Shown here: piece by piece, positions 51,693 through 51,739 of the stretch
Layout: every line of letters starts with the position of its first letter
Numbering within the stretch: position 1 is the stretch's first letter
IMG/VR virus record: IMGVR_UViG_3300026289_000086
Reading direction: 5' to 3' (one strand)
DNA: 64,000 bases
DNA from: a virus
Taxonomy: Duplodnaviria > Heunggongvirae > Uroviricota > Caudoviricetes
Made by a program: the position numbers and the translations under genes
Notes under the pieces: model-generated
Told to the model about the DNA's origin: nothing
Database searches by the model: none
The model's input: only the letters and a program-made list of their open reading frames with translations

Positions 51693-51739
51693 TCTGTCTG
51701 TCTGTCTGTCTGTCTGTCTGTCTGTCGGTCGGTCGTCAC
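51693..51739 (-). repeat. Tetranucleotide microsatellite (TCTG)9(TCGG)2 = (CAGA)n on the coding strand, 25-70 bp upstream of the zorA start
   Basis: Counted directly: nine perfect TCTG units at 51693-51728, then tcggtcggtcg. Confidence 0.9.

Follow-up and report, generated by a model that had tools for sequence, protein, structure and literature searches.

Does a tetranucleotide repeat directly upstream of a Zorya operon control how much of this anti-phage defence system is made? The question is raised by a tract in the 64,000-nt stretch of DNA analysed here (the window), which the initial annotation had read as nine TCTG units in the presumptive zorA promoter that might switch the operon ON and OFF. 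The perfect tract occupies 51693..51726 and consists of (TCTG)8 plus TC on the plus strand, which is (GACA)8 on the coding (minus) strand of zorA. The (TCTG)8 units span 51693-51724, the perfect period of 4 extends to 51726 (34 nt, 8.5 units), and the GACA register on the coding strand runs over 51726..51695. The tract is adjoined by the degenerate units TCGG TCGG TCGT at 51725-51736; TRF reports 10.5 copies (97%) over 51693-51734 because it takes these units in. Read along the minus strand, the order is GTG ACGA CCGA CCGA (CAGA)8, followed by AGAACAATGAAAGAATAATACGAAT and the ATG of zorA, and 51727..51739 on this strand contains the decayed 5´ end of the microsatellite (GACC GACC, ACGA) together with a GTG at 51739..51737, as judged from the sequence and from frame analysis. 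The repeat had thus been located correctly but counted one unit too long, since eight units are perfect, and two bases were missing from the coding-strand string quoted for it, which in reality reads ...TACGAATATG. The tract covers nt 26-59 upstream of the A of the zorA ATG (51667), and the degenerate units reach out to 69 nt, in agreement with the 25-70 bp given initially.

Apart from the (TCTG)8 tract, the 64 kb contain no microsatellite with four or more copies. When the window was simulated 200 times with a first-order Markov model, period-4 stretches reached at most 16 nt, compared with the observed 34 nt, and the analytic expectation for a stretch of 34 nt is ~5e-14, so the tract is far beyond chance. 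As in SSR contingency loci, the repeat is uninterrupted and long enough for slippage ((GACA)8), and it sits in a 5´ region, within the 337-nt intergenic region upstream of zorA. It could nevertheless be a neutral microsatellite that expanded by chance from an A/C-rich leader and has since drifted, mostly contracting, without a function under selection or a meaningful influence on Zorya expression. The extreme rarity of perfect 8-unit tetranucleotide tracts in bacterial DNA argues against a neutral repeat, and so does the location less than 60 nt from the start codon of a defence operon, since defence is the class of genes that is most often phase-variable. Conversely, this is the sole SSR in 64 kb, so that nothing suggests a genome-wide contingency strategy.

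The genes downstream of the tract form a complete type I Zorya operon, zorABCD, with zorA first. PADLOC identifies four adjacent, co-oriented genes on the minus strand: zorA (49664..51667; 667 aa, MotA-like with a long tail; ZorA1, 1.7e-241), whose start codon is conserved in orthologues; zorB (48923..49657; 244 aa, MotB-like; ZorB1, 6.7e-88); zorC (47193..48944; 583 aa as called in public assemblies, with the ORF open to 48989; EH signature; ZorC1, 2.8e-180); and zorD (43458..47189; 1243 aa, SNF2 helicase and Mrr-like nuclease; ZorD1, E = 0). In the 454-era CAP726 assembly (L008/L017), a 1-nt gap splits zorD, probably through an error in sequencing. On the same strand, 337 nt upstream of zorA, lies a DUF6946 gene (52005..52817; Pfam PF22187, 3e-27). 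Read by eye, its protein contains ...VIDA...LLAVEAKADE..., which resembles a PD-(D/E)XK nuclease motif. DUF6946 was rejected as a general Zorya partner, as none is found upstream of 39 other zorA loci.

ZorA and ZorB proteins identical to those of the window occur in many EBPR-sludge metagenomes (UW2007 and CAP726 records) and in one MAG. A sister version of the cassette (lineage 2) has ~97.8% DNA identity and is labelled Candidatus Accumulibacter delftensis or Accumulibacter sp. at NCBI. The block common to both lineages starts ~200 nt ahead of DUF6946 and ends at the zorD stop codon (window ~53024..43456), whereas the flanks differ: IS1595, IS21 or other genes adjoin one end, and a trypsin-like peptidase or SMC-like gene the opposite end. 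Because the common block has unlike flanks, DUF6946-zorABCD behaves, as far as its sequence context indicates, as one transferable cassette of Candidatus Accumulibacter.

The surrounding 18-58 kb of the window has lower GC and four IS families and looks like a mosaic mobile island. Tn5/IS4-like, IS110 and IS1595 transposases and a ParM/ALP-type actin-like gene are located around the Zorya cassette (28116-29549, 35658-36935, 53218-54267 and 55786-56760). An IS21-type istA/istB pair (32340-34625) is bracketed by two mutually inverted arrays of 23-nt tandem repeats (32197-32274 and 35213-35268), for which the simplest reading is the multiple terminal repeats of an IS21-type element. The patch of lowest GC, 24000-28000 (0.50, compared with 0.61-0.66 elsewhere), carries a subtilase gene (24848-26293) and a radical SAM/SPASM enzyme gene (26637-27836), and may be a horizontally acquired peptide-maturation or defence module. 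A plasmid origin was considered and dropped, as PLSDB returned no match.

To follow the tract across related cassettes, its copy number (n) was read in 31 public assemblies of the same cassette in addition to the window. An exact-flank pattern scan of metagenome contigs gave only two loci, both with n=5, and the alleles were therefore surveyed through exact-protein look-ups. Eleven assemblies have n=8 and ten have n=5; the others have n=3 (four assemblies), n=7 (three), n=4 (two) and n=2 (one), and neither n=6 nor n>8 occurs among the 31. The comparison of repeat number across related strains that had been proposed initially thus yields a range of n=2-8. Over 8.7-12.6 kb, the n=7 loci show 0 SNPs relative to the window, and the one gap in the alignment, of 4 nt, falls inside the tract. 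Lineage 2 sequences, which are 0-7 SNPs apart, have no indel in ~10 kb other than the tract. When the tract is removed, identical 2850-nt haplotypes carry n=2, 4 and 5, and the n=3 and n=8 haplotypes are 2 SNPs away from this haplotype. Copy number therefore varies among cassettes that are identical or 0-4 SNPs apart per 2.85 kb, and tract events over the 2.85 kb of lineage 2 are about as many as SNPs. Since n differs between otherwise identical haplotypes and the tract is the only indel, the tract is hypermutable: it gains and loses whole 4-nt units, in a pattern as from slipped-strand mispairing, and it mutates orders of magnitude faster per site than its surroundings. The copy number is polymorphic (n=2, 3, 4, 5, 7 and 8) between constant flanks, as in known SSR contingency loci. 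The initial proposal of a slippage-prone locus is borne out by these six copy numbers among near-identical cassettes, with the tract as the only indel in the aligned 9-12 kb.

That the copy-number differences are assembly or sequencing artefacts is very improbable. The Logan assemblies use short k-mers, and one short metagenome contig (L066, 1553-1588) stops 4 nt past the tract, both of which could point to an artefact. However, the same n recurs across independent samples and different assemblers, contigs built with k = 127-141 cover the full 34-nt tract, and the flanks are identical to the base. Moreover, tandem-repeat collapse cannot yield tracts shorter than k, and those with n=2-3 are only 8-12 nt long.

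Within one project the copy number is mostly constant, with n=3 three times (PRJNA254356), n=5 three times (ERZ272575xx) and n=8 about nine times (UW/JGI samples), and switching is therefore not fast enough to scramble consensus sequences. Changes in n are frequent on the evolutionary scale. Both n=7 and n=8 are found among consecutive ENA accessions (ERZ27233576/86/87 versus ERZ27233582), and the end of contig L066 may be an assembly bubble from mixed alleles; together, the neighbouring accessions and the contig break give only hints of switching within a population.

A consensus scan found no minus-strand promoter in the DUF6946-zorA intergenic region, and no terminator was found between these two genes. 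The best candidate in a PWM scan is an extended -10 element, TGcTATTAT (51858..51866, minus strand), 191 nt upstream of the ATG; its score of 10.4 is not significant against shuffled sequences (top scores 9.6 +/- 2.1). As neither scan gave a significant result, the promoter is not placeable, and the initial location of the tract in the presumptive zorA promoter is not supported: there is no significant sigma-70 promoter, and the best -10 candidate, far upstream, would put the tract in the 5´ leader. This candidate is preceded by a 14-bp palindrome, CTTGTAttTACAAG, in an AT-rich patch (51886..51899, minus strand), which was read from the sequence and falls below the arm threshold of the inverted-repeat search. 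The centre of the palindrome lies ~41 nt upstream of the TSS that this extended -10 would give; the palindrome may be an operator. A search of the intergenic region for inverted repeats whose arms reach 10 nt or more found none, and hence no clear operator pair flanks the tract. On the plus strand, a promoter-like TTGCCG-16-GATAAT (51835-51862) overlaps the minus-strand extended -10 and is directed at DUF6946, in antisense. A likeness of CTGTCTG to a Pho box was also considered and rejected, as the period of 4 is unlike the 11-bp spacing of such boxes. An Rfam scan of 51400-52300 (E <= 1) returned zero RNA family matches, and hence no known riboswitch or leader.

ZorA orthologues with 86, 83 and 82% identity all lack the tract, and the only upstream part that they have in common is the last ~25 nt before the start codon (AACAAnAGAAnAAnACG..ATG), which is A/C-rich and has no Shine-Dalgarno sequence. 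In the window, the corresponding A/C-rich proximal segment, which likewise has no Shine-Dalgarno sequence, is GAAGAACAATGAAAGAATAATACGAAT (51668..51694, minus strand); it holds the -10-like sequences AATAAT and TGaAAGAAT. This conserved stretch is more like a translation-initiation leader than a promoter, and we therefore place the tract, with moderate confidence, in the transcribed 5´ leader of zorA as its most likely position. The tract is also absent in 39 zorA loci from a genome-contig search (best match 82% identical) and from all ~45 other zorA lineages examined, so it is not a conserved regulatory element; this absence is as expected of a neutral repeat.

A position nearer to transcription initiation would follow if zorA had a proximal core promoter. 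In Neisseria meningitidis, the TAAA(n) tract of nadA lies upstream of the core promoter, and transcript level changes quasi-periodically with the number of TAAA units (Metruccio et al. 2009, PMC2791445), which offers a mechanistic precedent. A switch of the same type at zorA would combine a -35-like CAGACA with a -10 element, either TGaAAGAAT (51685..51677) or AATAAT (51679..51674), and produce a leaderless or near-leaderless mRNA, while the tract would set the distance and helical phase to upstream sites, such as the CGGCTA..TAGCCG inverted hexamers, and make transcription quasi-periodic with n. The CAGACA is supplied by the last repeat unit, 16 nt before TGaAAGAAT, and AATAAT ends exactly 7 nt before the A of the ATG of a gene that has no Shine-Dalgarno sequence. 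An xAxxxT hexamer is kept at the AATAAT position in 3/4 lineages; in the orthologue L068, however, this position reads AACAAC. The PWM scores of the proximal candidates reach 7.2-7.5 but stay within the range of shuffled sequences, the spacing of CAGACA to AATAAT is 15 or 19 nt rather than 17, and no regulator site was identified flanking the tract. Leaderless mRNAs are uncommon in Betaproteobacteria, which also counts against this reading. Taken together, a promoter-spacing switch appears improbable.

The zorA and nadA tracts are both tetranucleotide repeats in upstream non-coding DNA (4-13 units), n varies between strains, and the output of nadA, to which the zorA tract is likened, is graded or quasi-periodic without frameshift ON/OFF. 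In nadA, a mapped promoter, NadR operators and an IHF site flank the tract, whereas the zorA promoter is known as candidates only; the zorA tract is much closer to its start codon (26-59 nt); and nadA encodes an adhesin in a pathogen, whereas zorABCD is a defence operon in an environmental bacterium. The zorA tract is also unlike repeats that change the spacer of a core promoter (the hif TA(n) and porA/opc poly-G type): a periodic sequence of 34 nt cannot serve as the spacer between -35 and -10, and the last unit of the tract stays equally far from the AT-rich -10-like sequences whatever the value of n.

A frameshift within zorA, as in mod, lic or opa, is not found either. In-frame stops are present at -9 (TAA) and -18, the zorA ATG is conserved in orthologues and aligns with position 7 of the PADLOC ZorA profile, and an N-terminal extension of ZorA through the tract is excluded by these stops and the conserved ATG.

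The tract could still be translated in an upstream ORF that acts as a translational switch, although we consider the chance of this slim, below that of a promoter-spacing switch. Frame analysis identifies the GTG at 51739..51737 as the only start codon able to enter the tract, which would then be read as (DRQT)n. This GTG follows a Shine-Dalgarno-like GGGAGA (51748..51753, minus strand), 9 nt upstream, which is GGTAGA in most lineage 2 cassettes owing to a SNP at 51751, a change that counts against this reading. With n=2, 5 or 8, the ORF would stop at a TGA overlapping the ATG of a mini-ORF (ATG AAA GAA TAA, MKE*; 51675..51686, minus strand) that ends 7 nt before the zorA ATG; with n=3, 6 or 9, it would stop at the TAA 7 nt before the zorA ATG; and with n=4, 7 or 10, it would have 73 codons, pass through the zorA start in another frame and block initiation (OFF). 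The commonest alleles, 8 and 5, belong to one frame class, and coupling is plausible for a gene without its own Shine-Dalgarno sequence. However, each of the three frame classes is represented in the consensus sequences (n=7 in three samples and n=4 in two among them), the distribution of alleles over the classes lacks statistical significance, and the ORF is not conserved, as the orthologues lack the tract. A two-state pattern of alleles 8/5 versus 7/4, by helical phase or frame, was suggestive after 20 loci and was lost once n=2 and n=3 appeared. Part of this reading has a counterpart elsewhere: in the orthologue L072, a 7-codon mini-ORF ends at the homologous TAA. In L068, an ATGATG ORF overlaps the zorA start. 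The position of such mini-ORFs near a zorA start that has no Shine-Dalgarno sequence suggests that they may serve translational coupling.

If the tract is transcribed, its length could also act through RNA structure. The putative leader, from 51853 to +47, was folded with n=0-12. In the predicted fold, the tract is ~85% unpaired and lies between a structured upstream domain and the start region, and both the MFE (-56.4 kcal/mol) and the accessibility of the start site (0.64) are predicted to be identical for n=1-12. An RNA-structure switch was rejected, as folding reveals no n-dependent structure. The ON/OFF switching suggested in the initial annotation is not supported: the tract is neither a -35/-10 spacer nor in the zorA frame, and the predicted folding of the leader is independent of n.

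With the promoter scans not significant, the orthologues pointing to a leader and the predicted folding independent of n, we favour a graded dial over an ON/OFF switch. Tentatively, the GACA tract would be a graded modulator of zorABCD expression, a reading that we hold to be somewhat less than an even chance. The tract, a hypermutable (GACA)n in non-coding DNA directly upstream of zorA, would serve as an unstructured A/C-rich spacer between the structured upstream leader and an initiation region without a Shine-Dalgarno sequence. A change in its length would alter zorABCD expression stepwise, as a rheostat of the kind described for uspA2 or sabA rather than as an ON/OFF switch, and a possible route would be that leader length influences, in a graded manner, how ribosomes load or how stable the mRNA is, as in uspA2. 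The outcome would be Accumulibacter populations with heritable, reversible heterogeneity in the amount of Zorya. We infer the effect of n on expression from the position of the tract and from precedent.

The favoured architectural analogue is uspA2 of Moraxella catarrhalis, in which, according to a study as cited by a later paper, an AGAT(n) tract lies in the 5´ UTR and mRNA changes ~3-fold with the number of AGAT units (Attia and Hansen 2006, cited in PMC7302503). As far as this citing account describes it, the tract of uspA2 is, like the zorA tract if this lies in the leader, a tetranucleotide repeat between the likely TSS and the start codon; in the same account, it has 12-19 units, lies 132 bp upstream and was tested experimentally, whereas the zorA tract has n=2-8. 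Position by itself is no guarantee of function, because a GTTC(n) tract located 68 bp upstream of another M. catarrhalis gene has a minimal effect on mRNA (PMC7302503).

A neutral microsatellite is nearly as likely as the graded dial. The independence of predicted leader structure and start-site accessibility from n, as calculated by folding, would fit no effect of n equally well, and no significant promoter element is affected by the tract. No allele exceeds 8, and the allele spectrum (8>7 and 8>5>4>3>2) fits stepwise decay, so that contraction alone from an ancestral 8 can explain all alleles, as in a decaying neutral repeat. On the other hand, n=8 is uninterrupted in two lineages that are ~2% apart, and an independent SSR expansion is present upstream of another zorA, both of which are less easily accommodated by a neutral repeat.

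This second case is found in a Rhodocyclaceae MAG (L037), whose ZorA is 50% identical to that of the window, and is the single such case among the 39 other zorA loci. A G14 run (2399-2412) ends 2-3 nt upstream of a promoter-like TTCCTG-18-GATAAT, ~55 nt before zorA, with the 8-bp inverted repeat CCGGCAGG/CCTGCCGG on either side. Its length is G14 in the NCBI MAG, G15 in SRR13723393 and G5 in a relative with 98% ZorA identity, and three further Logan contigs begin inside the G run (related loci L075, L076 and L077-L080). Poly-G is prone to sequencing artefacts, and the run is possibly a second SSR-controlled Zorya promoter or in part such an artefact. Its closest analogue is sabA of Helicobacter pylori, where a T-tract beside the -35 element acts as a 'rheostat' (PMC4081817). 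Both are SSRs beside a core promoter, a candidate one at the G run, the sabA tract giving multi-level expression; unlike the G14-15 run, sabA has been tested experimentally, and, unlike the GACA tract, its repeat is a homopolymer. That SSRs have expanded independently just upstream of two zorA genes makes selection modestly more likely a priori.

A stronger version of the functional reading is that the locus is a true SSR contingency locus, in which gain and loss of GACA units would produce subpopulations with different Zorya activity or none, under selection by phages and by the cost of Zorya, with the same strategy arising independently in another Rhodocyclaceae Zorya through a poly-G tract at its promoter. 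We regard this version as doubtful. Its rationale is that of the phase-variable mod genes, such as those with AGCC/AGTC/CAAC tracts in Haemophilus and Neisseria and modM of M. catarrhalis (PMC7302503, PMC6902483). In both cases an anti-phage defence gene is associated with a hypermutable tetranucleotide repeat, and a costly or autoimmune defence would be varied within a population; the mod tracts lie inside the ORF and act by frameshift, whereas the zorA tract lies outside the ORF, with an in-frame stop at -9. In Streptomyces coelicolor, Pgl/BREX carries a G-tract in pglX, and it is likewise a defence system other than RM that phase-varies through an SSR, although its SSR is a homopolymer within the reading frame of pglX and Pgl/BREX belongs to another defence family.

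The locus is a well-documented hypermutable repeat at a suggestive place, and length variation between otherwise identical strains typifies a mutational dial of expression, which the tract may be. Among anti-phage defences, restriction-modification and a few other systems are well known to be phase-variable, and our literature search found no paper linking Zorya with phase variation or Zorya with Accumulibacter. Many time-series metagenomes and metatranscriptomes from EBPR (enhanced biological phosphorus removal) carry the locus at high coverage, with at least six alleles. If the tract is functional, it would be an SSR contingency locus in a new defence family and in an environmental bacterium; if the contingency reading is true, this Zorya would be the first that is phase-variable, and the tract would be a rare contingency locus for an environmental bacterium that is uncultured and free-living. 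Were Zorya tuned by the tract, membrane-motor defence would be costly enough for bet-hedging control, and contingency loci would extend beyond host-adapted pathogens to the free-living, industrially important polyphosphate accumulators of wastewater plants.
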